NCBI GenBank assembly: GCA_044892505.1 | Contig: CM097883.1 | Span: 201,438,001 to 201,502,000, forward strand | Reading direction: 5' to 3' | Origin: Schmidtea nova | Taxonomy: Eukaryota | DNA length: 64,000 nt | Part shown: positions 25,157 to 62,563 of the stretch, piece after piece | Layout of the letters: the number at the start of each line of letters is the position of its first letter | Position numbering within the stretch: the stretch's first letter is position 1 | Program-made: the position numbers and the translations under genes | Notes under the pieces: generated by a model | What the model was told of the DNA's origin: nothing | The model's input: the letters and a program-made list of their open reading frames with translations, nothing else | Database searches by the model: none

Positions 25157-25192
<36 letters not shown>

Positions 25193-27729: not shown

Positions 27730-27984
27730 AAATTTAAATCAAAGTCAAATCCCTAAAAATGGAAATTTACGATTACATATCAAATTTGGTAAAGCCATTG
27801 ACGAAATGGTTCATGAAATAATATATGGAGTCTTTGAAAATAAAATACAAATTACTGTCAATCGAGCAGAGCTGGTATAAATGAACCAAAATATATTAAT
27901 AATTTTCATAAAGTAAGCTTTTTAATTACTAAAATAATTAATTAAATTAGTTCTGTTCAGGTATATAGACTTGGTAAAAAACTA

Positions 27985-36632: not shown

Positions 36633-36694
36633 GCTGATTGGCTAACCAACAACACCGGTTCAGTATAAATACTGAAGTCAAATCAGTATTTGAC
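36633..36694 (+). promoter_or_regulatory. Candidate promoter in LTR (ATTGG/CCAAT box, TATAAATA at 36664)
   Basis: CTGATTGG at about 36634 and TATAAATA 36664-36671, conserved in the 3' LTR. Confidence 0.35.
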
Positions 36695-37782
36695 AATGTC
36701 ATTTTTTACTGAGTGTGAAGTATCAGCAAAACTTGTAACTGATTTGGAAGCCGCAATAAAAGGTAATTTGGAGTTATGTTTTGATGTATCTAAACCCTCA
36801 TAATTATTTGTAATCATGATAAAATCAATAAGGTTTTCCGGAGGCCTAACAGCCTGACGGATTCTTGGGGCCTCTCAGCGCAACACAATCTTTCGGTTGT
36901 GAGGTGCTGATGCGGCGGGACCATAGGTTTACTAAATACTTAGTAAATGGAAGGGGGATAAATGCACATAGGATGTCTACTACCATCGTAACATCAGTAT
37001 GGGTAAAAGCAATAGAAGGAGGTATTATCTGTCACGACGACATCGAGCAAATAAGTGTACGTAACAGGCGGGTTAATAGATCAATAGGGCATCTAGCGTT
37101 CGTGAAGTCGAGTAAAGTAGCGACGGTTTTGTGCCGAGGATATGTATCATGATAAATAACCCCAAGTTGGATAAATTGAGCACTGACGATGGTAGAGCTA
37201 TACAACGCATAAGTCATGTGAGTTCAGAGGCTGACAGTGCTAGCGTCAGAGGTAAACCATGAATCAACAAGGCATCCCAACATATATATACACCTCTCGA
37301 AGGGTACGAGGGATAGACCCCACGGATATTTAATGATAGTACGATCCGTACCCAATTAACCTGAGTAAGGGATTGATCATGTTCCCCGGATGATGTGATC
37401 ATTGGTAGTTGATAATGATGTTTGGAGATAAAACCTGAGGAGTGATTGAGCATGATTGCTGTAAATATAAACTAAAAATGTCTCGTAGATAATAACATTC
37501 AAACATAATGAACGGTCAAGCGATCACTGTAGATGAAACCAACTTATCATAAACGGCACGATGAATTATGCGTGGCCAAGCAATCGATAGAGTAAATGCA
37601 TTCACCAACAATGATAATAAAATACGACCTACATGATATCGCAAACATCGGACCGGTTCAACACTGAACCACCGACTGAAGCCTACAGAGTTTCACCCTT
37701 AAGTCGAGTAGGTCGACGGGTATAAATAATTGCGCTCACCCGACAAATCTATCACACTAACATAATTCTTATCTCCAGCCAC

Positions 37783-38418
37783 ATGATAAAGACCGAGGGA
37801 TACCAAAGGAATCTGATCGTCTCACGACATATGAAAGTGGAGGATTATGTCATCCGGAAAAAACGACGTATCCGTTCCGTCATCCAGCCAAAGAGGAACC
37901 CTACCATCGATGGAGAAATGGAAGCCCCACGCAGAATTAGCGAAACTGCGCGTCGACACTTACGCCGGTGGATAAGACATCATATGAGTGCAGCCGCCGA
38001 TATTCCGGCTTGCGCTTTCACGATACAATTACGATGGGAAGGAGACCCCGAGTGGACCTCCACCGCGGATCCTGCCGAGCCAAGGACCGATAGATGGTTC
38101 TACCAATTCCTCGACGGACAGCAACGACCCCGTTGGTTATTGAGTAATGAAATGATGACGGGAAGGGCTCTATATCAATTAGGGTACATGCTGCTAGACA
38201 GGCCTCGGTGTCGCTACACTGAGGAAGTCTTCGCCTACTCCAACGCGCCAGGAAGCGTGTCCTTAGATCAGTACCCCGAGCTCAAGGAGCTTCGCCTCTG
38301 GGAGGTGTTTATCTACAAAGATAAACTGAGTTGGAACCCAGCCCCAGAAATGTATTGGGAGAATGGAATTCGGTGCGACGAGTATCCCGCTGATCAGGAA
38401 TTGAGAGCATTCGGGTGA
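37783..38418 (+). CDS. LTR-internal ORF A, 211 aa, unknown function
   Basis: ATG start, uninterrupted 211 codons, preceded by CACTAAC branch point, pyrimidine tract and CAG at 37776-37778. Confidence 0.6.
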   Translation: MIKTEGYQRNLIVSRHMKVEDYVIRKKRRIRSVIQPKRNPTIDGEMEAPRRISETARRHLRRWIRHHMSAAADIPACAFTIQLRWEGDPEWTSTADPAEPRTDRWFYQFLDGQQRPRWLLSNEMMTGRALYQLGYMLLDRPRCRYTEEVFAYSNAPGSVSLDQYPELKELRLWEVFIYKDKLSWNPAPEMYWENGIRCDEYPADQELRAFG

Positions 38419-38571
38419 TCGACACAACCCGAACAAGAATGATTGTCGTAGATATAAAAATATATGTATTTGTGTGCGAACGGTCTTGTTTTGTTTTTCG
38501 AGTGCATGAGAATAGCATGATGATAAGGTGGAGTTGTTTAATAACGACAGGATGACCGAAAGATCGGACAA

Positions 38572-39171
38572 ATGACATATACCACAATTAATGATATATT
38601 TACAGACATGACTGAAACCAAGGACAGAGATTTCAAGCAAGAGGCGCGAGAACATAAGGCGCGTTCACGAGTCTTGGAAAATCGTTTAAGGCAACTGAAT
38701 GACGAGCATCAGAGGATCAAGACAACATGGTTTAACCCAGAGAGGGTTAAAGCCATCCTGCAAGCTAGATACAGGGTGGAACGAGCAGCTGAGGAACATG
38801 CCAGAGAGGTTGCAGCCCTGAAATTGGAGTTGGCCAATTACTTAAAGGTATCGACTCAGGATTTTATCACCGAACAATTGCGCCCAATGATCAGAGCGAG
38901 CACCTTTAACCGATGGGTGGACACGATAGCGGTAACCACGAGTACCCAAACGGAAACAGATGCAGTCGCAATCACGACGATCGAACCGACAACAAGGACT
39001 CCAGCAGGCTCAAAACGAACGAAGAGAAGGAATCGCCTCGGAGCGAAAAAGCGGCGAGAGCGACGTGCATATGCGGATCGCCTCGGGATAGAAGTAGACT
39101 TGCTCAGTGGTCTATCTGAACAAGAACTTCTGAATGTAATTAGACCATCAGTGTTATTGAATTATAAATAA
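38572..39171 (+). CDS. LTR-internal ORF B, 199 aa, coiled-coil plus basic NLS-like tract
   Basis: ATG start, heptad-rich N-half, KRTKRRNRLGAKKRRERR; AATAAA overlaps the stop. Confidence 0.6.
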   Translation: MTYTTINDIFTDMTETKDRDFKQEAREHKARSRVLENRLRQLNDEHQRIKTTWFNPERVKAILQARYRVERAAEEHAREVAALKLELANYLKVSTQDFITEQLRPMIRASTFNRWVDTIAVTTSTQTETDAVAITTIEPTTRTPAGSKRTKRRNRLGAKKRRERRAYADRLGIEVDLLSGLSEQELLNVIRPSVLLNYK

Positions 39172-39174
39172 ATG

Positions 39175-39368
39175 TATATAAATGAATGATTTGACTTGTC
39201 TTGTTTGTTTGAAGTATGTATGAGAATTAAAAGTAATGAAAACCTGGTTCATTTAAAGCTGCAGATATCTAAAAAGTAAATTACCCTAGGACAAAAGAAA
39301 AGAGCATAAGTGGGACCGAAAGAAATCCACAAACACCTTCTAACGGTAGTGGTGGACCCGTGAATAAA
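39175..39368 (+). promoter_or_regulatory. Candidate U3/R/U5 signals: TATATAAA (39175) and AATAAA (39363)
   Basis: Spacing TATA - about 190 nt - polyA signal - about 190 nt - PBS fits canonical LTR geometry. Confidence 0.4.
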
Positions 39369-39562
39369 CAAGGGAATAGTAGCCGCAAGGTTGCTCACCT
39401 GCCTTGTCATTTCACAACGTTGACACAGCACCAACATGATGAGTAGTTAGGGATACATCATGGGTGTCAGCGGGGGAATGTTTTTATGTTGGCGAGATCA
39501 CCCTAATAGATAAAATCCTAATGATCTCAGTTGTCAATCTAACCAACACACCCGCATAAATT

Positions 39563-39580
39563 TGGGAGCTCAGCCGGGAT
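39563..39580 (+). other. Primer binding site, tRNA-Pro-like
   Basis: TGGGAGCTCAGCCGGGAT matches the classical tRNA-Pro PBS TGGGGGCTCGTCCGGGAT at 15/18 positions. Confidence 0.7.
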
Positions 39581-40118
39581 TAAATCGATCGTTGTGTGAA
39601 AAAGTGAATTCGATATCTGCGGACAGTTTTAGAGCGCATGAACCGGGATGAAATTGAATTAGTGAGGAAAAGTAAAGTAAAGAATGATAGAGGGTTTGAG
39701 GATCCTGAAGCAAGAATGAATCGGGTTGAAAAATAATAAATAAAAGTATGAGTGTAAAAGAATGAGAATGATGAGAATGATGAAAGGATGCATGAGAATG
39801 AAAGTATGAATGATAACGGAATGGAAGTATGAGGACGAATGAAGTATGATGAATAGTATGTGGAGTAACAGTATGAAAAGTGACAAAAGGTATGCATGAC
39901 GCAATATAAAAGTATGTTGAAAGGTATGCATGAAAATGATATGAATGTAGACAACTAACAATGATCATGTCGGGGCGACATTCAAGAACACGGGGGGATA
40001 CGCAAGTAACGACGTAAAACAGAACAACAGAAAGCGAACAGTAGGACTACCATAGAATAGGAATGATAAATGATAAATAAAAATCGAAAACCAAATTTAA
40101 TGAGAATTCGTTCAGGGG

Positions 40119-40577
40119 ATGGAGAACAAAACAAAAGAAATGCAAACGTTTTTCGAAACAAACAACGAAACAGTGGAGACAATAATGAGGAAGTTAAGAC
40201 GACTCGAGGTAGGAGAATATCACGAACCGACAAACAACACAGAAAGAGCCGAAAGGATGATGAGCTTAAGTGAGAATAAGAACACAGTGGATACAGCAAC
40301 ACGATATCAATGGTATAGAGAAAGATTAAACAACCCTGAGATGAATATCGAGTGCCACAGGCTAGAACAACAGATTGCAACAAAACACGACGAGTGGATA
40401 AGAAGAACAACCGAACATACGAGACAATATCTGACGTGTTACATCTGTGAAATAAACAAAATACAGATAATGTTGTTGCCGTGTGGGCATTTTCGATTCT
40501 GTAATGAATGTAAAATAAATGAACAATGTCCTATGTGCAACCTTCCCGTATCCGAGAAAATAACAGTGTACTTGTAA
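40119..40577 (+). CDS. RING finger protein (IAP/MDM2-type C-terminal C3HC4 RING), 152 aa, no BIR
   Basis: CYICEINKIQIMLLPCGHFRFCNECKINEQCPMCNLPVSEKITVYL at the extreme C-terminus. Confidence 0.85.
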   Translation: MENKTKEMQTFFETNNETVETIMRKLRRLEVGEYHEPTNNTERAERMMSLSENKNTVDTATRYQWYRERLNNPEMNIECHRLEQQIATKHDEWIRRTTEHTRQYLTCYICEINKIQIMLLPCGHFRFCNECKINEQCPMCNLPVSEKITVYL

Positions 40578-41278
40578 TAGAAATAAAGTTTTGAACAAGT
40601 GCAGTTGTTATTGAAATTATGAGGGTTTAATAATGATTTGGTAAAAATGACCTAAGTAATAATGAGCTACTCACGAGTAGTCCGATAAGCACCCATTGGG
40701 GGGAACCAACTGATCAACTCACCCGAGATGTGTAGAAAGGGATCCAATCGCGGATATTGGAAAGCTCTTGTGATGTGACTGATCACCACATCGTGCATCA
40801 GTGGACCAATGCGATCTTTTTATATATTTTGGTTGGGGTGAAAGGTAAGGACAACTCAATGAGGTTTAGGCGCGCGCAGAAAAACTATAAAAAATAGGAC
40901 GATAAACTGATCAGTAAAGAGAGAGAGAAAGCAATGAAATGAGTAAGATGAGTAGAGAAATGGGGTATATGATGAAAGGCACGTAATCAGCTCGCATAGA
41001 CTAAAATCACGTAGAGAGGTTGACGAATCGATAATAGAATAAAGGGGTGTAATAGATGAGCCGAGTAAGTGAAAAACTCGAGGGTTAAATGAAATCCTTG
41101 AAAGAAAGGAAATGATAAAAGGGGTCCTAGAGAGAAAGGATTTGCCCATAGTTCTTGAAAGATAGAACTTAACGAAACACGACAATAGATTCTCCGAAGA
41201 AGCATAAGTGACCAATGAGAGGAACATCTCGAAGCAACACATGCAACCACTGAGAGATGATATTTCGAGTTTTCGTTC

Positions 41279-41875
41279 GTGAGCATAGGTCTCATAGTGA
41301 GCATAGGTCTCGTCATAAAAATAACATCCTAGTGAGCATAGGTCTCGTCATAAAACACAACATCATAGTGAGCATAGTTCTCGTCCGTAAATATAAATCT
41401 CGTAGTGAGCAGAGTTCTCATTAATAAACACAAGACCAGCGAACATAGTCCTCATCAGTGAGCGTAGTTCTCATCAACAAACATAGTCACCACAGTGAGC
41501 TTAGTTCTCATCAGGAAACATAATTCCTGTAGTCACCATCAGTGAGCATAGTTCTCATCAGGGAACATAGTCCCCGGAGCAAAGAGTTTCCATCAGTAAG
41601 CAAAACCCTCATAACAACCATGTTTTGCCAGTGAGCATAGTTCTCGTCAGTGAGCATAGTTCTCGTCAGTGAGCATAGTTCTCGTCAGTGAGCATAGTTC
41701 TCGTCAGTGAGCATAGTTCTCGTCAGTGAGCATAGTTCTCGTCAGTGAGCATAGTTCTCGTCAGTGAGCATAGTTCTCGTCAGTGAGCATAGTTCTCGTC
41801 AGGGAGCATAGTTCTCGTCATTGAACATAGTTCTCGTTAGTGAGCATAGTTCTCAGCGGTGAGCATAGTTCTCGT
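41279..41875 (+). repeat. 19-bp tandem array (CAGTGAGCATAGTTCTCGT) with degenerate upstream copies
   Basis: 9 perfect units 41629-41799, 4 variant units to 41875, dispersed variants 41279-41620. Confidence 0.95.
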
Positions 41876-42202
41876 TCGAAATAAAATATTGAGTAAAAGC
41901 CCACGAGAAAGACGACGAAGTGAGGCAGATGAGGACCAAATTAAGCACAAAACTATCCGGATAGAAAAGATCAACAAGTGATAATGGAGATGAATAAATA
42001 ATAATGAGGATAAATGATGAATAGTGAAAATGAATAGCGAATAATGAGGAATAAGGGTTGAAAGAAACCGAATTAATAACGAAAGAATTGAAGGTGCGCA
42101 CCTGAGTATTGATAAATGCGAGTAAAGCTGATTATGTGGCCTAATGATGTTAAAGTATGCATACAAGGAGGAGTAGCAAAGTAAAGTGAGTAAGTGAAGG
42201 GT

Positions 42203-42665
42203 GCTGACTGAAAAACCCAGCAGACCATGAGATTCGATGGGAATAAAAGGAAACCGGTTTGTTAAGACAGGTAAAGTGGTAAAGACGCTAGCTGGAAAAC
42301 CCAGCAGGTCAATGATAACGATCAGGAAAGATCGAGAGAATAAAAGGGAGTAATAATAAAGTAGTAAAATTGAGGACGCTGACTGGAAGACCCAGCAGGT
42401 CAAAAGTGATGATCATCGGAGTAAAGAACAGGTAAAAGTCGACAGTGAAGAGATAAAGGGTGGATAAAAAGAGCGCTGACTGGAAAAACCCAGCAGGCTA
42501 ATGAAACGACAATTGAGGTCGAGAATAATGAAGCAGAAGTAAAAGGTAAGATTAAAAGCGCTGACTGGAAAACCCAGCAGGCTAATGAGATAATGAGTGA
42601 AGTTGAAAGAAACAGAGTTCGAGATAAAAGGCGAGATTAAAGGTGCTGACTGGAAAACCCAGCAG
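42203..42665 (+). repeat. Six regularly spaced copies of hairpin motif GCTGACTGGAAAACCCAGCAG
   Basis: Copies start at 42203, 42287, 42378, 42475, 42560 and 42645 (spacing 84-97 nt). Confidence 0.9.
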
Positions 42666-43626
42666 GTCAACGAGAGATGTCAGTGGAATCAAAGGTGAGA
42701 AGAGATGGGAATTGAAATGAAGTAGTAAACGCAGTGTGAATAGGAAATAAAGCGAATAGTTGAGAAATAGAGTAGTCGACAGATAAGGGGAGATTTGAAC
42801 TCAGAGCCAGAGAAGCCTGAGAAAAGTAAAGGGGATAATAAGAGCGCTGAGCGACAAAGTAATTGGGGAACTGGGGAAAAGTAATTGGTGTATTTGATAA
42901 TGAATAGATAATTGATACGACTGCATAGATAATTTAAATAGACTTAAAATCAAGGGAAATGGGAAAAATGGGGATCTTCATGAATTATGACTACACCCGT
43001 GAGAGGGACGAGAAACACGATAACGGGGACGTATCGTGTAAGTGATTATTTGTTTTAAGGAAACAAATCAATCAAGCAATTCAAAGCAATCTAGCAGTCA
43101 GAGCAATCAAAGGAAACAAATCAAAGAAGAAGCAAAACAAAAGCGAAGTAGAAAATCAGTTGAGAATATAAGAAGTTGAGGAATAGACAAAATTGCGGAA
43201 CGCGAAACAAGGACAGGTATAATACCAATCCTAACAGAAGCAGAAAGAAAAGCAGCAAAAAGGGCAAAAGCAGCAGCTAAATTAGCGCAACAAAAGGTCG
43301 ACACAGAAGCGATCTTAACCGAAGAAGAAAGAAAAGCAGCGAAAAAGACAAGGCCAGGAAATAAAGCAGCGCAACTGAAGAACAAACCAGCAGAGATCAG
43401 CGATAATTCGAGTAATAAAGAGAATCAAGAAGAAATCCCAGAGGATCCAGAAGTACCAAACGAAGAAGAAACGATAGACAGTGAACTAGTCAGTGAAAAC
43501 AGAACAAGAAGCGAATCAAGAGATAACGAAACAGACAATAGTGAAGAAGAAGAGTTGAATCCAGAAACAAGTGGTGAAATAGAAGCAAAGAAAACTAGTA
43601 CAGTATTCCAAGATAGTGGAATCGGG

Positions 43627-45447: not shown

Positions 45448-45803
45448 CGAGAAACGAAAATGAACTAATACAGGAAGTTAGCAAAAACGAAACGAGACCA
45501 ACCGCACATATTGGGATGCTGAGACACCCAAGACAAGAGTTGTCAGATGAAGAAGACGACAGCGAAGTTAGCAGTCTGGCAGGAGACATGCTAAAGGAAC
45601 CGGAAAACGAGGACAAAAAGATGGAAGTAGTCGAGACAATAGAAACGATGTCAGTAAAGGAAGACGAAATTCAGAAGTTGATGGATAATGCGTTAGAAGT
45701 AATCCATAACGAGGAGTATATCGACAAGAAACGATACCGAAAGTTCATACGAGCAGTATGGCAAATGAAGTATAAAGAGTGGTTACAAGAAAGAGAAGTG
45801 TGA
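45261..45803 (+). CDS. Linker ORF in the pol frame, overlapping the gag end (-1 relative to gag)
   Basis: Same frame as the 4234-aa ORF and separated from it only by TGA 45801-45803; acidic protein-like sequence. Confidence 0.55.
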   Translation: MGRYGSNRDENERDDHQRGGTGENPTTSETSNPDQSNIQGKNKTKTVGRKNELEKRMGKAEITRNENELIQEVSKNETRPTAHIGMLRHPRQELSDEEDDSEVSSLAGDMLKEPENEDKKMEVVETIETMSVKEDEIQKLMDNALEVIHNEEYIDKKRYRKFIRAVWQMKYKEWLQEREV

Positions 45804-45830
45804 GTAATACAGGAGTTCATAGAGAAGTTA

Positions 45831-54800: not shown

Positions 54801-57800
54801 CTATTCGGAAACACCAGATCAAATTGGATGACAAAAGATAAAGAAGGACGAACATTCTTGAATCATGCAATTGACAGAGCAAATCACCGAATACTGAAGT
54901 ATATCACGGAAAATGCCACGTGGGAAATCGATGAACTAACCAGAGGATCGATCATGAAACAAGCAATCGGAGTTAGAAACAGTAAAACCTGGAGAATATT
55001 GCTAAAGTGGAAACGACCAGAAGGAGATTCGTGGGTCGTAGATTGTAATGAAGTATTCACAAGGGGAGAAAATGCGTTACTGAAACATCTATTAGAAGTA
55101 GCATACGATCCAAAAACACTTGCAGTGTTGATAGCGAGAGATACGTTACGGGTTAGCGAAAACCCAAGAGAATACAAGTTGGATGACCGAAAGAAGGAAC
55201 TATTCGGATTAATCAAGAAATGGTGTGATAAGCAATGGAATCCGGATATGAGCTTCGAACATTTTTATGACATCCAAAAGCAGCACAAAGAAATAAGCAA
55301 GCGATATAAAGAGCTGGTGGAAGCATTGAAGTATGGACAATTCTTCAGACAAGCAGTGTATCAAGACCAACGGATGAAACAGATGCAAACACGAATAAGA
55401 AGCAAAGCAGTGTTGTTCAATGCAAAAGCCGATTATCAAGAGAGATTAGACGCAATCGTAGCAAAAGCACAGGAAAAATTATCGGAATTCAAAGAGAATA
55501 AAAACTCGTTGGAAATACTAGGAGCAATTACAGAGAAAGTACACAGATACGCACAAGGAGATTATAACGAGAGTGACATAGAAACGATCAAAAATCAAAT
55601 GCCAGTAGCATTCCTATTATCAAAGGATGGGAAATTGCCGATACACTGGGCATTACGTCGAAGGAAAGAAAACGAAGTGCTAGAAATAACAAAAGCGATG
55701 GTCAAGTGCGAAGCAGACATGAATACGGTTGATGATAATGGAGACACAGTCATGATAATCGCAGCAAGAAAGAAGACGAACTTTAAAGTGCTAAGTAAAT
55801 TTTACGAAGCAGGAGCAAAAATTGAAGGGAAAAATGGAAAGAATAATTCCATCACAGATATCGCAATACAGTGGAACAACTTCGAGATGATCAAGTTCAT
55901 AAAGTCCATCAAGAAACAAGATGATATAGAATACCTGGCAAATAACGTAAAGAATTTCAGTCTGACAGTAATGATACACGACGTAGAGAAAACAAGAGCA
56001 TTACTAACATGGGTGAATCCGATCACCAAGGAACCAGTGTTCAAGATCAATGACCATATGGAACAGAATCAGAATTGGTGTATCAGAAGCGCGTTATTAA
56101 GACACAAAAAGCCAGAGATAGTAGAAGAATTCCTAAAGAGAAGAGATTTGAAATTCACGAACAACCCAAAGGAACAGGAACGAATGGGAAGATGGAAAGA
56201 CTTATTCAGAAAATATGTGAAGGAGTGGGCAAATGCCAAAGAAACGATCAAGCAAAGTGGACTAAAAGACATAGAACCATCCAAGGATATGGAAATACGT
56301 GAATTCGAGTCTAGCACACTCGCAGTTCAAGCGTATGAAAGATTGATTGAAGAAATTAATGTCGAGGACGACATTTCGAAAGGACCAGGGGGTGGTTACA
56401 GAGACTTCGACGACAAAAGTAACAATGAAAAGAACAACGAAGACAATGACAACAAAAGAACAGAGGATAATGGAAAAGAAAGACAAGAAGAACCGAAACC
56501 AACGAGAAACGACAAGAAAGGAGAAGCCGAAGAACGAGAAAACAGTGGAACAAAAGACGAACGTACGAACTATGGAAAACGAACAGGAAGTCTACTTTTG
56601 AGACCAGAAATGTTGTGTATTGCGATATTGATAACAATCATCGGACAAGGAGAAGCCAAGAAACAATACGTCACGCTAGAGATAATCAGAGGAAATGAAG
56701 TATACGAAAAAATATGCTGGAAAGAAAACATGAGGAAAAACGATACGCTGAAGTGTATATTGTCAGATTTGAAGCGAGACGTCATCCAAATCAAAGGATT
56801 GGAGAAAGAAAAGTCATACATAATATGCGCAATAAAGCAGAGAGGAGAACCAAAAGCACCTCAAGTAACTGCGTGTCAATTATATAAAGCAACAGAAGCG
56901 CTGAAAATACAGAAATGGGTTGGGAAAAGAAGTGAAGAGACAACGAGAAGAACAGAAGTGGAATCAGAGAAAGGGAAGAATCAATCTGAAGCAGAAGAGG
57001 GAATCAGAAACCGAACAGAGAAAGAAAGAATAACCAAAAATCCAGCGGGCAAATTAACATTCCAACCAGAATTGATATGTGTAGCATTAATATTAATCCT
57101 TATTAAGAGAATCATGGAGGACATAGATATCAGCGTGATGACGTTAGTAAATATCCAAGACCAACGAACAACGAATGGAAGATGTTGGGGACGAAACAAT
57201 GAAGTAATGGGAATCAGCGAAACAAGAGAAAGTCGAGAAGCAGAGACAAATGAAGAAATCGAAATAACAGAAATAGAGACAGATAAAAAATGTGAACTAT
57301 GTCTCATGGAAAAGGCAGCAAACGGAAACAGACCAGGAACAAGCGAGTGTAAAGTGTTCCAAGCAAAGGAGATAATTGAGTTCCCAAAAAGAAAGAAACA
57401 AGATCAAGAAATGATTGCGAATGAAGTAGTAACAGTGGAGATAAAAAACATTGATCGGAGAACAATTGGGATGTGTTGGAGAAAATACATCGGAGTATCG
57501 ACCAACATCATAATACCGCAATGTAGAACGAGAGAACGAGGAATCCCGTTTCCACTAAATGGATTCGAAGTCGGACAAGCATACGAAATCTGCATAATCC
57601 GAAGAATAAGAGAAGTAATACAAAGAAGCCTGGAGTGCAAACTGTACAAGACGCCAGAGCAAATTAACGGAACGAGAACGATTGAAATGGGAAGAAGTCG
57701 ACAGAGGAAAAGAAAGTCAAGAAGAATCACGACAACCAACAGTCAAGGAACTCAACAGACAACAACAGAAAGGACGACAATAGAAAACGAACCGGAATCA

Positions 57801-58535
57801 ACAACGTTGATAATATGGAAGATCCATAAAAAAGTCCTAGAAATCTGTTGGACATTAATGCCAAACAGTATGGGAAAGTCCCCACGAAACTGTCAAAAGA
57901 CATCAAATAATAAAGGAGAAATAATCGAGGTAGAAATGAGGAAGTTGAAAACAAACGCAGAATACGAAGTATGTGCAATCGAAGAAGTGGACGCACAAGG
58001 AAATCCACAGGAAAGGTGCGACACCTATTACACGCCAAAGAACATAACAACCAAAAGGAGAATCAGAAAGTTAGAATTCAGAGAATTGAGCCTAAAAAGA
58101 GAACAAACAGAGACGGAAGAAGCAACATCTAGTCAACAAGAAAGATGGGAACCAGAGAAAGTGATCGAAGAAGTCAGACGGAGACAACAACAATATGAAC
58201 AATGGGAAGCAGAATGGAAAGGTCAATATGGCGTGATGATAAACCAAAGTGAAACTCCAAAAAGGAGCATTGGAAAAACAATAATGGGATTAATCAGTAT
58301 GGGAGTATTCATAGGGTGTATACCGCTGATAACGATCATGATAGTATGTTGGAGATATGGCATGAGAAATAAGACCATAGCAGTAAAATGGCCGGACGTA
58401 AAGGTCACGAATTACAACATAAAACTACCAAAAGCAGTACGAGAAGAGCTGAAAAGACGATCAAAACACGAAGAGATGTGGGTACAGATCGAAGACGAGG
58501 AACTGTACGAAGGAAAACCAGTGATAGTTGTATAG
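45831..58535 (+). CDS. pol: 4234-aa polyprotein: Ubl-like / Bcl-2-like / Env / PR / RT / RNase H / IN / ankyrin / FN3-like + TM
   Basis: Single uninterrupted frame (open from 45804; listed start is TTG) containing all the domains listed below. Confidence 0.95.
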   Translation: MKEPLNEYVVQIWINECSPRIWIRNPMTDGIYRWVEDRLGSSYKDKFIYSENGLVRKGTHMIDTGIWPGEITTLSICNTKKEENLQGIVKEANMCYEMRIKPQLIETKERILAENLNTMIEQIIQQIKKHRKELTKSEYENLKQCIETIRDTSQTRHSNFKTDKLIAKMGKEMFKRGEVSDLKITVRLPNEETRQIEVIPDSKVGEIVDVINETILQREREDELEDDIAIKYKEHLLNERDERRAYKIGIWDNYQTIHVIRMDDVQRATPRDEERKKKRQEDVMRKLRQIVEIYRKWQMKPEWETILGELDLNRRRLTPVEKQWDNKEKCWKVKRGVYEEDPEGEDRYETNTKRICMVTRRLLPTDLDEPETAVIWAELEKQKTNELIELLRGNTRRKRQTIKGLAQFIITNGEDMTNLRKAAKAIAEYKRVNEWCPEQLDDVIKKWRNKEFAEETPQKIHLRIMYPNQRKEEFWVMLTEKVKSVKEKLMYELPFHLQHQGRSLDNSLEIWLTPVQLDLMNTLTVAQIVGQPLKFKEEKKAKGSMSTPSPMKSTMTTGTSSGQARTTPIKTRERTPPEAYDVDEILTDSDEAIEELTKLTQKPTANIFDRIIEMPITSPAEIDDQGVEQEVVIEMVNDSEEEQEQPQFTQEMERWLEQRANEGRDVTEETGRATRFVETGTGMEKRPRGRPKIDPTTAIPKTREERRQEQWETCLKKLDKIAEIRGKEENQVCQGEEWLTKTIMDVLAIIDPELRNLWRINEPSTKAKMLHNAIAPIMPELIKAKTKSNHLDWQGTTMLIKRLLNGAETDTKYLVAISYTIYNLLTLSRGSPKSSPMGRHIKNTAMIIEKEIEPYILRKGGWEKFIKENQAKEGSNVMRKKLEGVLREMENRQTMQGNGRSTLNLNSIIMMMLVWLLSTEGVTTFEVFDCDQMKLGEKYSLRGTEQCKDATPVELKEIKKEQWYHVYQEAELIKTMVNECKVQKTRFAFYCGRGHYSAIVMPGTEREPIVLQGEDCEALFKHGEVTTRDKIKIRGKPGMMLQQTYYVAGRITGGEGYCQGETYPIFGVPATNLVVMDTYIVELKSYEAFFEPTTGEMKTLSMSKIDRSMCQTGMSTLVYKPKVNECQLQLLQGAKFDEIQGKTFQEEDDDDKARAKHLKEALENKRQLKPDHREKRIEMRTTPTVLITTNQDVGMRFIKGKATLKCSTTVYETNYPGIYVSKQEVPNTKPKIDTMDIKLHLYVNNKMDFLFHRGQASLQKVYYDLINNDCILNREILKTKLAVAITNPDSAMPLLPLREGHFGRVVGEAMYVYICEKTHASLAATTQLKPGQCTNELEIDYKGKVRYVQPVTRIINPPGFEPNPFNCSNAYGPLYQKPDGKWVMFPGRTEVLAPREFELMQLSKDRQFSDVDVSNNGIYSPKDLEAARQNILFPARREALLSNIVTITGGTNYREGPNYELLLSPAHFKKATENMMKAMWGRFLIFGQMMAGILGVILIIQIVRVIITQMLACFDIYKREKKVNWKMVVGFLPFLAKTMVLHGHSKDIHRIKRLLKILAKMRGTNEDVGRKFKKIIQDEQARRQLKKERKGLWERVRGYRTQDDSSNDDDDDDDRGGQANINQIPQYNEKSAVENWRYSAPPQSMYNEPIYKAKPNMMQMMPMTSIYPIIPEDCKVKRGRSVDSLEDTHTIAVMSTNMGPILTTTVEINGREIEAMIDTGANISAIDINYIPEKNQGEIEKTNVHVIACSQETVEVAGRWFVKIKHRGAEINTYIAVIPSLSVPCIIGTDLMPDLFKEIVIDLGAMKLKDRTGKICRMKVKVASTEQIVVPARHEMMCYVKIDSTIKGDMIFEPSKKFEAKKELPMARELVTINQEGEIPINLVNFDEEDKIIYENENLGKLTPMSEIEIPDKNEKGKGELPWKIDSMLLDEQQKEQLQKLLMEYQDIFAASDLDLGTCDVTLHTIPLTDETPIALRPYKLAEAQKAVAEEEVQKMLDAEVIEPSCSPWQFPVVMVKKKDGTQRFCIDYRRLNAVTKRDTYPLPDINEMLLTLQGAAYFTSLDLKSGYWQIKMKDEDKEKTAFTIGRDLYQFKKMPFGLTNAPPSFQRCMNFVTHGIKQCMVYIDDLLIYSATFEDHLQDIRNVFVKLRQWKLKLKPSKCDWAKEKVTFLGHIVSAKGKEPDPRNIEKVKECPPPKTVTQIQEFLGLCGYYRKFIKDYAGISKPMQELVRQDVSFVWGPEQQAAFETLRDKLITAPILVHPNFKKPFLLATDASGYAAGAVLGQFDEEGKERVIGYYSRTFRKHEKNYSVTEREAYAIILAIKHFKYLLWGHEIYITTDHQPLVWLGQHKESSSRLMRWAMQLQEYSPFIKFKAGKANANADCMSRFTFPELVNLNALKICALIAEDLDFNELRKDQLEEEELGLISKYLKEREIEKFGKNQMLREHMQKYQHRYVMEKGWLLIQDGERRLMCLPANRRKEIMTQYHDGKLGGHMSAKKTIGRLRQKYFWPTMEDDVKEWIKNCLTCATRKNVGTKWKTPLKPMPIPAEPMATIAMDVVGPLPESLKGNQYILVVTDYLTKFPEAFAIPDQKAKTVARILVEEICCRYGTPKKILTDQGTNFMSEILDEVTNYFRIAKLRTSPYHPQTNGQTERFNGTLIRMLSNYVSKHQTDWDEYINLCLMAYRMSIHAATKLSPFQLMYGRDYNLPIDLEYQPPLSQYMEVDDYVTKFKERMQEIWKTAELNIKFYQESYKDLHDQKKNVKAHDLKVGDWVIIETPEIIPGTVKKLQRPGKGPYEITTVNENNVRVRLVNNPLVRPIYVNACRCRKIPKTATLSPEKRVMTRSQTARINMLRVQQKPQTSLEDNRRGATDIKELAKRTREIIPEWKWWFDFNILSEVRKNVMEYAKDRTGHPITRTLLEEIPQTFNLQDKDGNTALHNAIKHSGNEKVKEIVEMILEGGGEIDKVNWEGITPLMMMTIHGRNDEIVKLFGNTRSNWMTKDKEGRTFLNHAIDRANHRILKYITENATWEIDELTRGSIMKQAIGVRNSKTWRILLKWKRPEGDSWVVDCNEVFTRGENALLKHLLEVAYDPKTLAVLIARDTLRVSENPREYKLDDRKKELFGLIKKWCDKQWNPDMSFEHFYDIQKQHKEISKRYKELVEALKYGQFFRQAVYQDQRMKQMQTRIRSKAVLFNAKADYQERLDAIVAKAQEKLSEFKENKNSLEILGAITEKVHRYAQGDYNESDIETIKNQMPVAFLLSKDGKLPIHWALRRRKENEVLEITKAMVKCEADMNTVDDNGDTVMIIAARKKTNFKVLSKFYEAGAKIEGKNGKNNSITDIAIQWNNFEMIKFIKSIKKQDDIEYLANNVKNFSLTVMIHDVEKTRALLTWVNPITKEPVFKINDHMEQNQNWCIRSALLRHKKPEIVEEFLKRRDLKFTNNPKEQERMGRWKDLFRKYVKEWANAKETIKQSGLKDIEPSKDMEIREFESSTLAVQAYERLIEEINVEDDISKGPGGGYRDFDDKSNNEKNNEDNDNKRTEDNGKERQEEPKPTRNDKKGEAEERENSGTKDERTNYGKRTGSLLLRPEMLCIAILITIIGQGEAKKQYVTLEIIRGNEVYEKICWKENMRKNDTLKCILSDLKRDVIQIKGLEKEKSYIICAIKQRGEPKAPQVTACQLYKATEALKIQKWVGKRSEETTRRTEVESEKGKNQSEAEEGIRNRTEKERITKNPAGKLTFQPELICVALILILIKRIMEDIDISVMTLVNIQDQRTTNGRCWGRNNEVMGISETRESREAETNEEIEITEIETDKKCELCLMEKAANGNRPGTSECKVFQAKEIIEFPKRKKQDQEMIANEVVTVEIKNIDRRTIGMCWRKYIGVSTNIIIPQCRTRERGIPFPLNGFEVGQAYEICIIRRIREVIQRSLECKLYKTPEQINGTRTIEMGRSRQRKRKSRRITTTNSQGTQQTTTERTTIENEPESTTLIIWKIHKKVLEICWTLMPNSMGKSPRNCQKTSNNKGEIIEVEMRKLKTNAEYEVCAIEEVDAQGNPQERCDTYYTPKNITTKRRIRKLEFRELSLKREQTETEEATSSQQERWEPEKVIEEVRRRQQQYEQWEAEWKGQYGVMINQSETPKRSIGKTIMGLISMGVFIGCIPLITIMIVCWRYGMRNKTIAVKWPDVKVTNYNIKLPKAVREELKRRSKHEEMWVQIEDEELYEGKPVIVV
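45849..47417 (+). other. Two to three ubiquitin-like domains in polyprotein (45849-46061 weak; 46371-46613; 47202-47417)
   Basis: LKITVRLPNEETRQIEVIPDSKVGEIV..YKIGIWDNYQTIHVI and IHLRIMYPNQRKEEFWVMLTEKVKSVKEKL..HQGRSLDN..TLTV follow the beta-grasp pattern. Confidence 0.6.
47961..48440 (+). other. Bcl-2-like domain in polyprotein
   Basis: BH3-like CLKKLDKIAE, BH1-like LLNGAETDTKYLVAISY (NWGR not conserved), BH2-like EPYILRKGGWEKF (GGW at 48408-48416). Confidence 0.55.
48537..50460 (+). other. env: Envelope glycoprotein, class III fusion type (chuvirus/Monjiviricetes G-like), in frame upstream of protease
   Basis: Signal-like IIMMMLVWLLSTEG; FDC..YSL..C, ECKVQKTRFAFYCG.GH, YETNYPGIY, LHLYVNNKMDFL, DCILNREIL, VGEAMYVYIC, GIYSPKDLEAARQNILFPARREALL; TM 50277-50372. 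Confidence 0.8.
50930..51220 (+). other. Aspartic protease domain
   Basis: VEINGREIEAMIDTGANISAI (DTG at 50982) and CIIGTDLM. Confidence 0.95.
51780..52400 (+). other. Reverse transcriptase domain (Gypsy)
   Basis: SPWQFPVVMVKKKDG..FCIDYRRLN, LDLKSGYWQI, KTAF, MPFGLTNAPPSFQR, YIDD (52197-52208). Confidence 0.97.
52630..52990 (+). other. RNase H domain
   Basis: LATDASGYAAGAVL, NYSVTEREAYAI, TDHQPL, RLMRW, ANANADCMSR. Confidence 0.95.
53289..54320 (+). other. Integrase (HHCC + DDE core + GPY)
   Basis: HDGKLGGH..CLTC, IAMDVVGPLP, LTDQGTNF, YHPQTNGQTERFN, GKGPYEI. Confidence 0.96.
54612..55905 (+). other. Two ankyrin-repeat clusters (54612-54910 and 55614-55905)
   Basis: DKDGNTALHNAI, NWEGITPLMM, DKEGRTFLNHAI; KDGKLPIHWAL, DDNGDTVMIIAA, GKNNSITDIAI. 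Confidence 0.85.
56592..58349 (+). other. Four Cys-containing FN3-like repeats with two signal/TM-like segments and a C-terminal TM helix
   Basis: Repeats share C-W, L/F-x5-Y-x-[IV]-C and terminal C-x2-[YF]; hydrophobic PEMLCIAILITIIGQGEA (56592-56657), PELICVALILILI (about 57054-57110), TM IMGLISMGVFIGCIPLITIMIVC (58281-58349). Confidence 0.6.
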
Positions 58536-58660
58536 AGGGTGGAATATGAGTGTAAATAATAGTGTAAAAAACCAATGCATAACCGTATACGTATGGGTAT
58601 AAATATTATAAAACATAAAAACAGAAAAAAAGAGAATGATGTATATAACCTAGAAAAACA

Positions 58661-59011
58661 ATGAACCAAGAAAATATCGAAACGTCAATGATGACGAGAT
58701 GGAAAGTACAATGTGACCTGCTAGCCAGAACAGTAAATGAATTACAGAGCCAGTTGACGGCCAAAACGCAATTATTAACCGAGAGTTATAACTGTAATTT
58801 CGAAGCGATGAACAAAATCGAGATCCAACAAATGCAGATAAACGAATTACAGAACGAGAACCGAACATTAAATGAAGTGAACAACTGGCAAGCAGAGGAA
58901 ATTGATCGATTAACGAGACATGAAGAGGAGGAGATACCGGATAGTTGGACAAGCTGGATTGTAAATGAGATAGACGTGTATCCAGAGCCAGATTCAACTG
59001 AGGATGTATAG
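58661..59011 (+). CDS. Accessory coiled-coil protein, 116 aa
   Basis: ATG start, heptad pattern, same strand and composition as neighbours. Confidence 0.7.
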   Translation: MNQENIETSMMTRWKVQCDLLARTVNELQSQLTAKTQLLTESYNCNFEAMNKIEIQQMQINELQNENRTLNEVNNWQAEEIDRLTRHEEEEIPDSWTSWIVNEIDVYPEPDSTEDV

Positions 59012-59100
59012 TGAATAAGCGGAAAATTGTGTAAAAACGTGTAAATAAAGAATCAGAAAAATCAAAAATATGGGGAAATTGATGTAAATATTGTTGTAGA

Positions 59101-60513
59101 ATGAGAGCAGAAAGTGAAACAGATTACCAAACAATCGAGATTCTAAGAGGAGAGAACCGACAATGGGGAGTAAATGTGACATGTGTAAAGTGTAAAAATT
59201 TACTGTTAAAACCGAGACAAACGGAATGTGGATGCAGGATGTGCACCAAATGTATACTACAAATAATCAGTGAAAGTGAGACAAGAAAGTGTCCAGAGTG
59301 TGACGATAAACTACTGATCAACGAGACGAAACCAGACAAAGCAATACAAAAGGAGATCTGGAAGATAAAAACCGAATGTATAAACCAACCATGTGAATGG
59401 AAAGGACAAATAATCGAGCTAAGACAACATCTGGAGAAATGTGAAAACAAGAAAGCTATATGTGAAAAGTGTCAGCAGACGATAACCATCAAGCAGTCGA
59501 AAAATCACAAGGATAAGTGCAAAGCAGAGATAATAGAGTGTCAATACTGCGAACAAAGAGAGACGAGAGAAGTAATCGAAACAGAACATCTCAACGTAGT
59601 AGAAGAGAAAGTGTGTGGAAAATTCAGAGGAATTTGTCCAAGTAATTGTGGAGCCGGAGAAGAAGTGATGTTGAGAGAACATTGGGAACAATGCGAATCA
59701 AGACCAAGAAAGTGCGTATGGAGTAAACAAGGATGTGCAGTAAAGAGAACGAGAAAAGAGATGAAAGAGCATTTAGAAACTGAAACGGTACAACACGCAG
59801 AGATGTTAACAGAAAATTTAAACGGAATGGAACAAACCATACAGAAACTGGGAAAAGAAATCGAATCCCAGAGGATAATGACGGAGTTATTACTGGAAAC
59901 GAGAGAGCAATTCGAGCTCACCAGAGAGAAAATGATGGAGAAAATCAAAGTCATAGAGACGCTAGTAAAGGAGGTAAATGTACGACATCAAATATGGGTG
60001 CGAGATGCAGAGGATATCGAGAATTTACCGGTCGCACCATATGTATGGAAAATCAAGAACTTCAACGACAAGTTCACAGCAGCAAAAGCAGGAAGTCAGG
60101 TGTCGGTAACAAGTCCACCATTCTATCTGTGGAAAAACGGATACAAAGTTCGAATGAGAATTTATCCAAATGGAGATGGATCAGGAAAGGAAACGCATGT
60201 GTCATTATTCTTTGCGTTGTGTAAAGGTGGTTACGACGACATATTAGAATGGCCGCTAGAAACAAAGGCTATAATGAGAGTGAAAAACTCGAAAGAAACA
60301 ATAGCGAGAGTATTCAAAATTGATGGTAAGCACGAAGCTTACAAAAGACCAACCACAGAATGTTCATTAGCGACTGGAGAACCAAAATTCATACCACACC
60401 AAACAATGTGGGAAATGTTGTTCGACGACAACCTATACGTAGAATTGGAAATCGAAAAGAAAGCAAGTACAACAGTGATGAACACGAAGTCAACGAAAGG
60501 ATGGTTAGAGTAG
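59101..60513 (+). CDS. Full-length intronless TRAF homologue (RING, TRAF zinc fingers, coiled coil, MATH), 470 aa
   Basis: CVKC..PRQTECGCRMCTKC..CPEC, DKAIQKEI..CINQPCEWKG..HLEKC, YVWKIKNF..SPPFY..GYKVRMRIYPNGDGSGKETHVSLFF..YDDILEWP. Confidence 0.93.
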   Translation: MRAESETDYQTIEILRGENRQWGVNVTCVKCKNLLLKPRQTECGCRMCTKCILQIISESETRKCPECDDKLLINETKPDKAIQKEIWKIKTECINQPCEWKGQIIELRQHLEKCENKKAICEKCQQTITIKQSKNHKDKCKAEIIECQYCEQRETREVIETEHLNVVEEKVCGKFRGICPSNCGAGEEVMLREHWEQCESRPRKCVWSKQGCAVKRTRKEMKEHLETETVQHAEMLTENLNGMEQTIQKLGKEIESQRIMTELLLETREQFELTREKMMEKIKVIETLVKEVNVRHQIWVRDAEDIENLPVAPYVWKIKNFNDKFTAAKAGSQVSVTSPPFYLWKNGYKVRMRIYPNGDGSGKETHVSLFFALCKGGYDDILEWPLETKAIMRVKNSKETIARVFKIDGKHEAYKRPTTECSLATGEPKFIPHQTMWEMLFDDNLYVELEIEKKASTTVMNTKSTKGWLE

Positions 60514-60602
60514 TCAGAATGAACGACCCTGTAAATAAAGTGTAAAAATCGACAACAACAATAAACGTATAGTATAACAAGTGTAAATTTGTCAATTACA
60601 GA

Positions 60603-61763
60603 ATGGAAAACGCAAATGAACCTGTAACCGAAGATGAAACGAGAAGTGAGATGTTGAACGAACAAGAAACAATAGAAAGAGAAATCGAAAGGAGATGTAA
60701 AATGGAAGTGGAACAAAGAACCAGAGAATTACACGAAGTGATGACAAACAATTTCTACGAGAAATTAAAATGTGAGAGACGAATGGAGTTATATCAACTG
60801 GAACTCGAGGAAGTGAATAAAGAGATGATACAACTGACAACACAAATAGAGAAGCTAAAAGGAACGAATGTGCGAAGTCGACAGAAGATAGAAGAGGTCT
60901 ATCAGTTGATGAGGAAACAAGCAGAACATTATAAAAATATGATGAAAACGCGAAGAGAAGAGAGGGAGAAACAAGAGGAAAAGATGGAGGTAAAGATACT
61001 AGCAATCAAAGCTCAAGCGAGACATTGGAAGATGGAGTCGAAACGAGTGTATAAAGAAGCCAAAGAGATAATCAGAAGGACAGCATATAGCGAAGATTGG
61101 AAACTGTATCAAGAAATCGACGAATTGAAAGAAGAATTAGAACAGAGAAAGAGACAAGAACAGACAAACAAAGAATGGAGTCGAAAACGGCAACGATTTA
61201 TTCGAGAGCAAGCAAAGGAACTAAAGAAAACGCAATGGCAAATACAGATGATAAATGGAGAAATGCGAGGCATTAGACAGAAAGAGGAAGCGGAAAGACA
61301 AAAGTTGATCAGGGAAAAAGAAAGTCTGGAAAGAGATGTAAATGGTTACCAAGGTGTGATGACCCAAAAGAAAATGGAACTGAAAGCTGTGAAGGAAAGA
61401 CATGCGGAATCAAACCGAGCGTATGAAGAAAATATAACGAATTTGACGAAAGAAAACGAAGAACTGAAACAACAAATAATAACCCTGAAAGCAGAGAAAG
61501 AAACCATAGAAGTAGAAACCGAACCAACAGAAGTAGAAGCCCTGAAGAGAAAAGTGGAAGAGATGGAAAGACAAATTGAAACTCTGAGCGAACAATCAGA
61601 CTATATGGAGTATCTGTTAGACGAGGAAATACAAACCTCGAGAACGTATCAAAACGAAATTGCAATGTGGAGAAGCAGAGTGGTGTGGTTACCGTTTATA
61701 CCACCGCCACCAATGGAGCTCCAAGACGAAGGGTTCCATGAACCAGAGGAAACGGATGTGTAA
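60603..61763 (+). CDS. Accessory long coiled-coil protein, 386 aa, ends ETDV
   Basis: ATG start, E/K/R/Q-rich heptads throughout. Confidence 0.75.
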   Translation: MENANEPVTEDETRSEMLNEQETIEREIERRCKMEVEQRTRELHEVMTNNFYEKLKCERRMELYQLELEEVNKEMIQLTTQIEKLKGTNVRSRQKIEEVYQLMRKQAEHYKNMMKTRREEREKQEEKMEVKILAIKAQARHWKMESKRVYKEAKEIIRRTAYSEDWKLYQEIDELKEELEQRKRQEQTNKEWSRKRQRFIREQAKELKKTQWQIQMINGEMRGIRQKEEAERQKLIREKESLERDVNGYQGVMTQKKMELKAVKERHAESNRAYEENITNLTKENEELKQQIITLKAEKETIEVETEPTEVEALKRKVEEMERQIETLSEQSDYMEYLLDEEIQTSRTYQNEIAMWRSRVVWLPFIPPPPMELQDEGFHEPEETDV

Positions 61764-61837
61764 AAAGAGGCGAAAAATCCGTGTGTAAAAATGTACAAAT
61801 CGATGTAACAGGTATTAATCAGTAGAAATAATCAGAA

Positions 61838-62361
61838 ATGAACTGGCTCAAAACCCTACCAATCCTAACAATTATGTTAACTGCAACAATCATGAACTGT
61901 TCGACAACCGAAATTCAAAGAACCCTGTCAAATGAGATATCCCAAGAGATTGAAAAACAACTAACGAAGTCAGAGAAGACTTGAAACAATTAATCCGACA
62001 AATGCGAACCAGTCATGATCATCGCAAACCTTTAAAAACCCTATTCAAGCAAATCGAGAAGATCCGAGAAATCCATAGAACATTGCAAGAACACCTAAAG
62101 CCAATCAAAGGTCAAACCCAAATCGAATCCGAAATCCGAAACAGATGGATCATCGTCGGAATAGTCACAATGACAATATTGACAATCATCTTGATCATCG
62201 TGATCACGTATACCCTATATCGAATCAGAAGCCTCAAACAACAACAAATGATAATGTGTAGATGCGCCAAAAGAGAAGCAAAAACCCAACAGAGAATGAG
62301 AAGTCATCTACGACAAATTCAAGCCCGATACGAAATGCAGTCAACCAGTGAAAGGACCTGA
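61838..62361 (+). CDS. Small type I membrane protein split by one frameshift (61838-61984 signal-peptide part; 61954-62361 TM part)
   Basis: MNWLKTLPILTIMLTATIMNCS.. from ATG 61838 stops at 61984; the -1 frame is open from 61954 and holds TM WIIVGIVTMTILTIILIIVITYTLY. Confidence 0.55.
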
Positions 62362-62563
62362 AAATCGACCCCTATGAGCCAGAAACATTGAACTGTGTAA
62401 CAATATAAACATGACAATGACAATGTGTGACTTTGTATAAATGGGTATGAAAGCTACCACCTTATGTGGTTTTGCATGTAAATTCTGTCACGAACTTTCT
62501 ATGAATGTTGATGTAGGTATATGCATGTAATTGCGGGACGCAATTTTAGGGGACCCTGAGTGA

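Follow-up and report, generated by a model that had tools for sequence, protein, structure and literature searches.

How can a retroelement RNA of about 25 kb express seven separate accessory open reading frames (ORFs) and still yield genomic RNA? Giant Burro-type elements carry many extra genes, TRAF and RING genes among them, and the question is posed by a locus of Schmidtea nova on contig CM097883.1 of GenBank assembly GCA_044892505.1. The DNA analysed, referred to as the window, comprised 64,000 nucleotides (nt), positions 201,438,001 to 201,502,000 of the forward strand; coordinates are counted from its first letter, and the genes and signals of the element described here are on the forward strand. 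To judge from its layout, what lies between 36263 and beyond the window end is a young long terminal repeat (LTR) retroelement, a Burro-like giant of the Ty3/gypsy group with the order gag-env-pol. A first-pass annotation had proposed that its accessory ORFs, A to G, form an operon-like cassette resolved by trans- or alternative cis-splicing. We conclude that the underlying pattern is real but was partly overstated, in an element of a known kind, and that splicing of one type or the other probably operates at ORFs A, B, E and F. The analysis yields base-exact predictions of junctions, start sites and 3' ends.

The proposal started from YAG trinucleotides lying just ahead of ATGs. All six of the YAG-N(1-7)-ATG sites that had been listed are present, with AG ends at 37778, 40115, 58653, 59099, 60601 and 61835, as is a CACTAAC branch-type sequence at 37755, before ORF A. 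A YAG was found 1-7 nt upstream of the first ATG in 6 of the 7 accessory ORFs, as compared with 137 of the 665 other ATGs of the element (P = 4.4e-4), which bears out the wording 'nearly every accessory ORF'. Against non-coding ATGs (25/164) the difference was sharper (P = 7.6e-5), and local 60-nt shuffles gave P = 1.7e-4. The 1-7 nt interval had been picked after the data were seen; narrower intervals gave 5/7 for 1-4 nt (P = 4e-4) and 3/7 for 1-2 nt (P = 0.012). YAG was the top pattern out of 96 tried before accessory ATGs, and minus-strand shadow ORFs carried it in 2 of 12 cases. Kozak context was rejected as the cause of the excess, because requiring a purine at -3 did not raise the background (101/433).

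Acceptor quality was scored for all 805 YAGs, disregarding ATGs, from AG-free distance, pyrimidine and T content, TT at -6/-5 and a branch-like motif. When these features were weighted at random 2000 times, B came out at a median rank of 1, E at 3, A at 5, F at 35, C at 56, G at 80 and D at 261, and the named site was the best of its intergenic region in 5 of 7 cases. ORF B, the sole exception to the first-ATG pattern, holds the best-scoring acceptor of the element (38575-38605): TTTACAG, with a branch-like site and 41 AG-free nt, ends at 38605, 2 nt before the second in-frame ATG at 38608. This site was absent from the first-pass annotation, as were the acceptor-like site of gag at 43059, the TATA boxes and the TGTAHA motif described below. 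At ORF A (37755-37778) a CTAAC branch-like site, a pyrimidine tract and CAG are combined with 65 AG-free nt. The six named sites exceeded 185 other non-coding YAGs in AG-free distance (P = 0.005) and T content (P = 0.0009); their overall pyrimidine content was not above that of the same 185 (P = 0.14). TTNYAG occurs at three of the seven accessory acceptors (B, E and F; G is without it) as compared with 21 of 798 other YAGs; a depletion of TTNYAG within ORFs was rejected as a signal (20 versus 20.8 expected). ORF G has an alternative AG at 61811. The TAG before D was rejected as a splice signal, being an ordinary YAG with a TATA box upstream instead.

Could the pattern be accidental? T-richer, AG-poorer spacer DNA together with post-hoc choice of motifs might mimic acceptors, or the acceptors might be scars of gene capture. 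We regard this as improbable; the ORFs would then be read through leaky 3' ends and re-initiation, or hardly at all. Such a reading draws on the small number of cases (n = 7), on an interval and a score that were set afterwards, on the unconvincing sites of D and G, on AATAAA counts and an 89-nt spacer match at chance level, and on reading-frame breaks in the present copy. Yet the significance holds against non-coding YAGs only, across intervals and weightings, and the apparent exception, ORF B, has the top-ranked site at an in-frame ATG. Since the LTRs differ by only 0.4%, the signals belong to a recently active family.

Acceptors require donors, which were scored by their match to a 9-nt U1-type consensus with a cut-off of at least 7/9. 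The 28 sites obtained include three with 8/9, at 36763, 40845 and 42546, all in the LTR or the leader. The LTR candidate, AAG/GTAATT with its GT at 36763, is overlapped by AATAAA (36755-36770), with U-rich sequence downstream, and no ATG occurs in 36699-36762. The long leader (40578-43059) contains tandem arrays of 19 and 35 nt (41295-41875) and, besides 40845 and 42546, candidates of 7/9 at 41065, 42186 and 43038. Between gag and G, donor-like sites are depleted (8 versus 43 expected; none of 200 shuffles was as low). Within ORFs, GTRAGT was found 0 times versus 6.4 expected and GTAAG 5 times versus ~18, the fourth most depleted of 847 5-mers. In a control set of 78 unrelated gypsy loci, the 69 whose reverse transcriptase (RT) frame is intact gave a pooled observed/expected donor ratio of 0.96, versus 0.34 here.

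The AG/GTATGC donors that had been singled out at 39890 and 39924 are present, but nothing sets them apart: like 23 other sites they match U1 at 7/9, and they lie in an RGTATG repeat cluster (39743-39930) with eight copies in 39745-39923. They were rejected as signals and are probably not the working donors, being unremarkable members of a repeat array with better candidates at 36763, 40845 and 42546. The superposition of AATAAA on the strongest LTR donor candidate is seen in both LTRs (36755-36770 and 63056-63071). U1 binding at an overlapping donor could mask the poly(A) site of the 5' LTR, by a mechanism as in retroviruses.

The same logic extends to gag. The T-richest NAG of the element (TTTTGTTTTAAG) ends an acceptor-like site at 43040-43059, in phase 0 with the gag frame. 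Ahead of this site there are 39 ATGs between the primer-binding site (PBS) and ORF C and 50 between ORF C and 43059, so that gag would not be reachable by scanning of unspliced RNA; the 567 nt past 43059 contain none (5/20000 shuffles). The gag frame is open for 149 codons ahead of its first ATG (6/20000 shuffles) and is protein-like from 43180, following a stop at 43177. The ATG-free stretch 43060-43626, together with the acceptor-like site, suggests that the gag mRNA is spliced and that Gag may be extended at its N-terminus, with no AUG of its own.

At the other end of each ORF, poly(A)-like hexamers follow most stops. ORF A (37783-38418) is followed by TATAAA/AATATA and a U-rich tract, ORF B (38572-39171) has AATAAA over its stop and a U-rich tract, and ORF C (40119-40577) has AATAAA at +5 and a U-rich tract. 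Downstream T content after the LTR, A, B and C hexamers was 0.40-0.47, above the 90th percentile of 0.315 for 45 AATAAA. The hexamers after most stops and the U-rich tracts after A, B and C are features suggesting internal mRNA ends. Behind pol, the spacers measure 125, 89, 89 and 74 nt, within the range of 74-125 nt given before. The pol-D spacer (58536-58660) contains three TGTAHA motifs, AATAAT, a promoter candidate and the weak acceptor at 58653. The D-E spacer (59012-59100) has three TGTAHA, AATAAA at 59044 and the strong acceptor TTGTAG at 59099; the E-F spacer (60514-60602) three TGTAHA, AATAAA at 60534 and 60560 and the acceptor TTACAG at 60601. In the F-G spacer (61764-61837) no AATAAA was found; TGTAHA occurs at 61759 (over the F stop), 61784 and 61792, and acceptor candidates at 61811 and 61835. 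The AATAAA reported 20-35 nt after the upstream stop is indeed there, 33 nt past the stop of D and 21 nt past that of E, but as an enrichment it was rejected (3 in the four 3' spacers versus 2.2 expected; 1904/5000 shuffles). No meaning could be attached to the two equal 89-nt spacers either, behind which no clear homology was found; by our own rough estimate, a coincidence of two of four lengths in a ~50-nt range is a 1-in-8 event.

What does stand out in the 3' spacers is TGTA[ACT]A (TGTAHA), found 12 times versus 0.79 expected, all on the forward strand, the sole reverse match being a palindrome; the motif was found post hoc and the counted intervals include the stops. Its 8-nt form TGTA[ACT]ATA occurred 5 times versus 0.08. 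We take TGTA[ACT]ATA to be a Pumilio element, which also overlaps a Forkhead site. This ambiguity bears on another explanation, namely that each ORF has a compact promoter and poly(A) site of its own, as in the gene arrays of DNA viruses, with the TGTAAA(T/A)A clusters acting as Forkhead-type DNA sites and the YAGs as initiator or context features. We think it improbable, to the same degree as the chance reading. Three motif copies per spacer do resemble homotypic clusters of factor sites, clear TATA candidates precede A and D, and tissue-specific expression of planarian transposons has been reported in the accessible literature. But TATAWAWR has no match in the D-E, E-F and F-G spacers or before B, TGTAHA keeps to one strand, and AG-exclusion zones, branch-like sites and donor depletion would be left unexplained.

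The TATA candidates themselves are few. GTATAAATA occurs only three times in the element, once in the LTR (36663) and twice as GGGTATAAATA, at 65 nt upstream of the ATG of A and at 66 nt upstream of that of D. Promoter candidate P1 (36637-36705) comprises ATTGG (reverse CCAAT) at 36637, TATAAATA at 36664 and the initiator (Inr)-like sequences TCAGT at 36683 and TCATTTT at 36699. P2 (37718-37758) combines GGGTATAAATA with Inr-like TCACACT at 37752, and P3 carries it at 58595.

The placing of P2 and P3 invites an operon reading, which we consider unlikely while giving it more weight than either explanation above. P2 (37721) and P3 (58598) would each drive a polycistronic RNA, A-B and D-E-F-G respectively; its first gene would keep its own cap, and B, E, F and G, possibly also gag at 43059, would be freed by 3' cleavage in the spacers and addition of a host spliced leader (SL). 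Each cluster's first ORF has GGGTATAAATA at the distance just given, the first gene D has a poor acceptor, and the downstream genes B, E and F have TTNYAG, which the accessible text of PMC12582326 and PMC8629364 reports for flatworm SL acceptors. The A-B gap (153-189 nt) and the D-G spacers are all on the same strand and inside the operon threshold of 300 nt or less, the spacers being near the ~100-nt peak described there. No donor above 6/9 occurs from P3 to the E acceptor or from P2 to the B acceptor (three 7/9 sites lie inside E), an SL1-trans-spliced mRNA is known in Cer1 (PMC3315495, in part), and 43059 is in phase 0 with the ATG-less gag frame. Against this, flatworm SLs end in AUG (PMC12582326, in part), and at 6 of the 7 acceptors this AUG would fall out of frame and open competing frames of 1-53 codons; the argument is weak, because the chance expectation of being in frame is only 1 in 3. 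The excellent acceptor of A lies ~25 nt past the P2 Inr and therefore must serve an upstream start, which has a strong cis donor. The phase-0 frame at 43059 meets a stop after 39 codons in the present copy, UUNYAG is described as a canonical acceptor, common to cis-splicing too (PMC12582326, in part), and the reading presupposes an SL system in the host. Less probable again would be true eukaryotic operons in an envelope-bearing retroelement, in which A-B and D-E-F-G have internal promoters, monocistronic mRNAs for captured immune and apoptosis regulators are cut out by the host SL machinery and the poly(A) sites of the spacers, the SL AUG may start the ATG-less long Gag, and a UGUA-binding host protein switches between messages and genomic RNA.

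The reading that we favour, plausible while short of probable, is cis-splicing of a short LTR leader to one or another of several terminal exons that each have a poly(A) site of their own, and transcription of D from an internal promoter. RNA polymerase II would start at the LTR promoter at ~36695-36700, and a non-coding leader of ~65 nt up to donor 36763 (or leader donor 40845 or 42546) would be joined to the acceptor of A, B, C, gag (43059), E, F or G. An accessory gene would thus consist of an acceptor, an ATG within a few bases, the ORF and a poly(A) signal just past the stop. Use of an acceptor would switch on the poly(A) site behind that ORF, giving a monocistronic mRNA, and the fraction of RNA left unspliced would be the genomic RNA. 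ORF D, and perhaps also A, which has its own candidate TATA and Inr besides its acceptor, would more likely be transcribed from an internal TATA promoter. The TGTAHA clusters might be RNA elements that tune weak 3' ends or nearby acceptors through Pumilio- or CFIm25-type proteins.

The operon-like cassette resolved by splicing therefore survives for A, B, E and probably F, on account of their AG-free zones, T-rich tracts and the donor depletion, and does not for D, likelier the first gene behind an internal TATA promoter. Cis-spliced terminal exons appear the simplest account of the strong acceptors (A, B, E, F and 43059), the LTR and leader donors, the ATG-free stretch before gag and the hexamers. 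We lean towards cis- over SL trans-splicing, a choice that DNA alone cannot make, because of the strong LTR donor with its almost ATG-free leader and because an AUG-ended SL would be out of frame at most acceptors. The features were seen directly; from this DNA we infer each step of processing.

A number of observations weigh against the favoured model. Introns of 16-25 kb are needed to reach E-G. The features of the acceptor score were selected after the sites were seen, D has an ordinary YAG at 58653 (rank 261/805), and the acceptors of C and G score in the middle range. Other ORFs can be equally depleted of donors, as were 6 of the 63 control ORFs with an expectation of at least 3; from protease (PR) to integrase (IN) alone donors are not depleted (2 versus 2.8), and leader donors are not significantly enriched (14 versus 9.2 expected; 19/200 shuffles). 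One ATG falls at 36696 in the LTR, and the Inr-like sites of P1 lie 21 and 37 nt from the TATA. An R at ~36700-36780 would imply an unusually long U5 of ~2.7 kb. Downstream T content after the pol, D, E and G hexamers is only 0.25-0.33, the AATAAA of the four 3' spacers are at chance level, and F lacks a canonical hexamer. A scan of genome contigs for sister elements returned 78 GTDB loci, all ordinary gypsy contaminants, with env or an accessory ORF in 0/78. UGUA enrichment upstream of poly(A) signals is reportedly absent in S. mediterranea (PMC5068929, in part). CFIm as the UGUA reader is weakened if the host resembles that species.

The accessory products are varied. ORF A encodes 211 amino acids (aa) and ORF B 199 aa (187 aa from the ATG at 38608). 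No family was found for A, whose structure model was unusable (predicted local distance difference test, pLDDT, 30), and B had 0 matches among 1.84 billion representative sequences. ORF C (152 aa) is a C3HC4 RING protein in which RING was the only domain found, and no BIR domain was found among the 11 ORFs scanned with Pfam; the missing BIR lowers the case for 'is Burro1', not that for 'Burro-like'. ORF D (58661-59011) encodes a coiled-coil-like protein of 116 aa and ORF E (59101-60513) an intronless TRAF of 470 aa with RING, zf-TRAF and MATH. ORF F (60603-61763; 386 aa) is a long coiled-coil-like sequence, as judged from its letters. ORF G (61838-62361) is broken in the present copy into overlapping frames (61838-61984 and 61954-62361), the first of only 48 codons; its N-terminus is hydrophobic, as is a stretch late in the sequence, which suggests a membrane protein. 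For A, B, D, F and G, Pfam gave no family above cut-off, and an exact look-up matched 0/10 proteins.

Between the LTRs the order PR-RT-RNase H-IN was found. The gag frame (43180-45447; first ATG 43627) encodes Retrotrans_gag and CCHC knuckles, and the env-pol frame (45258-58535) a fusion glycoprotein, PR, RT, RNase H, IN and ankyrin repeats. In Pfam searches a Monjiviricetes-type fusion glycoprotein is followed by the pol domains and ankyrin in one 4208-aa frame; PF24664 (E = 7e-71; aa 1151-1492) lies ahead of RVP at aa 1678, placing env between gag and PR and in frame with pol. The polyprotein is not one uninterrupted ORF in the present copy, with a frame change near 45380 and an in-frame stop at 45801; these breaks may reflect programmed recoding, splicing or simple decay. 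The frame change coincides with a slippery-type heptamer, G GGA AAA, in the gag frame (45378-45384); the stop shares bases with a donor-like GTGAGT, and 45928 is the last base of an acceptor-like TTTACAG (45800-45928). Ahead of env (46329-48488), two stretches look ubiquitin-like by eye and another, which contains GGW, looks BCL2-like, as Burro is described. Neither kind of motif had a Pfam or PDB sequence match; for the BCL2-like region fold comparison likewise gave nothing significant, a single-sequence model had a pLDDT of 52, and weak Bcl-xL rows (E 1-2) are not evidence. Some 700 aa behind the ankyrin region (56400-58532) contain repeated Cys-containing segments and a late hydrophobic stretch, with no Pfam family above cut-off.

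The element is young because its two LTR stretches (36263-37697 and 62564-64000) are 99.58% identical, with 4 substitutions and one 2-nt gap. The 3' LTR (62564-64000), the repeat of 36263-37697, is cut by the window end. The 5' LTR (36263-39459) is ~3.2 kb long; its right end is placed near 39459, with 39436 as an alternative, because of a terminal CA and of a PBS-like site at 39461-39472, 11/12 nt of which are complementary to the 3' end of tRNA-Leu (compared by eye with supplement rows of PMC13524379, in part). With this end, ORFs A and B lie inside the LTR and ORF C in the leader, and the element measures ~23.1 kb internally and ~29.5 kb in total, as compared with the Burro criterion of up to 25 kb internal and more than 30 kb total. 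The 3' LTR junction TGATGT... is the inverse of ...ACATCA before the PBS, and CCAACA at 39436 that of the 5' LTR start, TGTTGG; the true terminus has an uncertainty of 3 nt at the left and 23 nt at the right (62561-62570 versus 36260-36270 and 39430-39459). A and B, without homologues, thus appear within an LTR of ~3.2 kb (36263-39459), where U3 and U5 are both possible, with an alternative TATA at 39177 and AATAAA at 39363. A search for a self-priming PBS gave a single 11-nt match, located inside the LTR, and an Rfam scan of 36000-64000 gave 0 matches. The leader stretches 41295-41875 and 42200-42680 hold, along with the 19- and 35-nt arrays, some five scattered copies of a GCTGACTGGAAAACCCAGCAGG-like motif, which might serve in packaging or export.

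From ~36 kb on, the window is GC-richer and purine-skewed; the flanks have 20-34% GC except in one 2-kb block and contain ATT repeats, a composition compatible with a triclad host. Judged by eye, the flanks hold decayed transposon pieces (14079-14729, 24905-28290, 30748-31419, 32666-35233 and 35702-36079), namely Tc1/IS630-like transposases, Polinton/Maverick-like integrase, capsid, protease and DNA polymerase fragments and a gag-like fragment, besides four N gaps. No intron-bearing host gene was recognisable among 91 flank ORFs, which were read by eye without Pfam. GTDB representative genomes hold many eukaryotic gypsy contigs as contamination, many of them in metagenome-assembled genomes of Sedimenticola, Rubritalea and Stappiaceae.

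Complex retroviruses (human immunodeficiency virus, foamy viruses, walleye dermal sarcoma virus) place accessory ORFs around gag-pol-env, with mRNAs that are 3'-coterminal at the LTR. Like them, the adenovirus major late unit splices a common leader to many acceptors; it also uses several poly(A) sites, but is that of a DNA virus with no genomic RNA to preserve. Cer1 of Caenorhabditis elegans, likewise of the gypsy group, makes a spliced accessory mRNA and has an acceptor ahead of its initiator ATG; it uses SL1, and its unspliced genomic RNA must skip the splice sites (accessible parts of PMC3315495 and PMC10309623). It has one accessory protein that shares gag exons (same sources), whereas here there are seven separate ORFs, most with a poly(A)-like signal behind. 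In the shGAG of plant Ty1/Copia, splicing is coupled to internal termination to give a subgenomic mRNA, in a single event for GAG and with no accessory array (PMC5580714, in part). Flatworm and nematode SL operons share the spacer lengths, UUNYAG at downstream genes and a first gene that needs no acceptor, but they consist of host genes (PMC12582326 and PMC8629364, in part), whereas the element has strong upstream cis donors and an SL AUG mostly out of frame.

Gene order and envelope type are those of GAG-ENV-POL errantiviruses with an env of the herpes simplex virus (HSV)/gB type, and the env of Smed_errantivirus_1 looks homologous by eye (PMC13524379, in part). In a quick RT-RNase H tree of 78 rows, the element falls with 16 env-before-pol polyproteins at 99% support (Shimodaira-Hasegawa-like approximate likelihood ratio test, SH-aLRT), the closest identity being only 57%; these relatives are env-pol polyproteins, with no Burro sequence included. 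In the accessible main text of the errantivirus paper, 'accessory' and 'splic' have 0 occurrences.

Burro/GYPSM1 of triclad planarians, in the accessible text of PMC6431247, has in common with the element its giant size and long LTRs, an env placed between gag and pol, CCHC gag, ankyrin repeats, accessory content of TRAF/MATH, RING and coiled coils, and tandem repeats in the leader; the gag-env-pol frames sum here to ~5,100 codons, as compared with the 4,873-5,140 aa reported. As described there, TRAF is inside the polyprotein in S. mediterranea Burro and an upstream ORF in D. tigrina, whereas here it is a separate ORF downstream of pol. The present copy further differs in that no BIR was found, two ORFs lie inside the LTR and the polyprotein is interrupted. 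Burro1 inhibitor of apoptosis (IAP) is reported, through citing text, to aid planarian regeneration. No account of how Burro accessory ORFs are expressed was found in the literature that could be searched, the accessible text of PMC6431247, PMC6880638 and PMC11410931 included; Grohme 2018 and Lee 2026, or their supplements, may already contain transcript maps. If the proposed scheme is true, its multiple internal poly(A) sites would be a departure from the 3'-coterminal scheme of retroviruses, and SL operons would be more unusual still.

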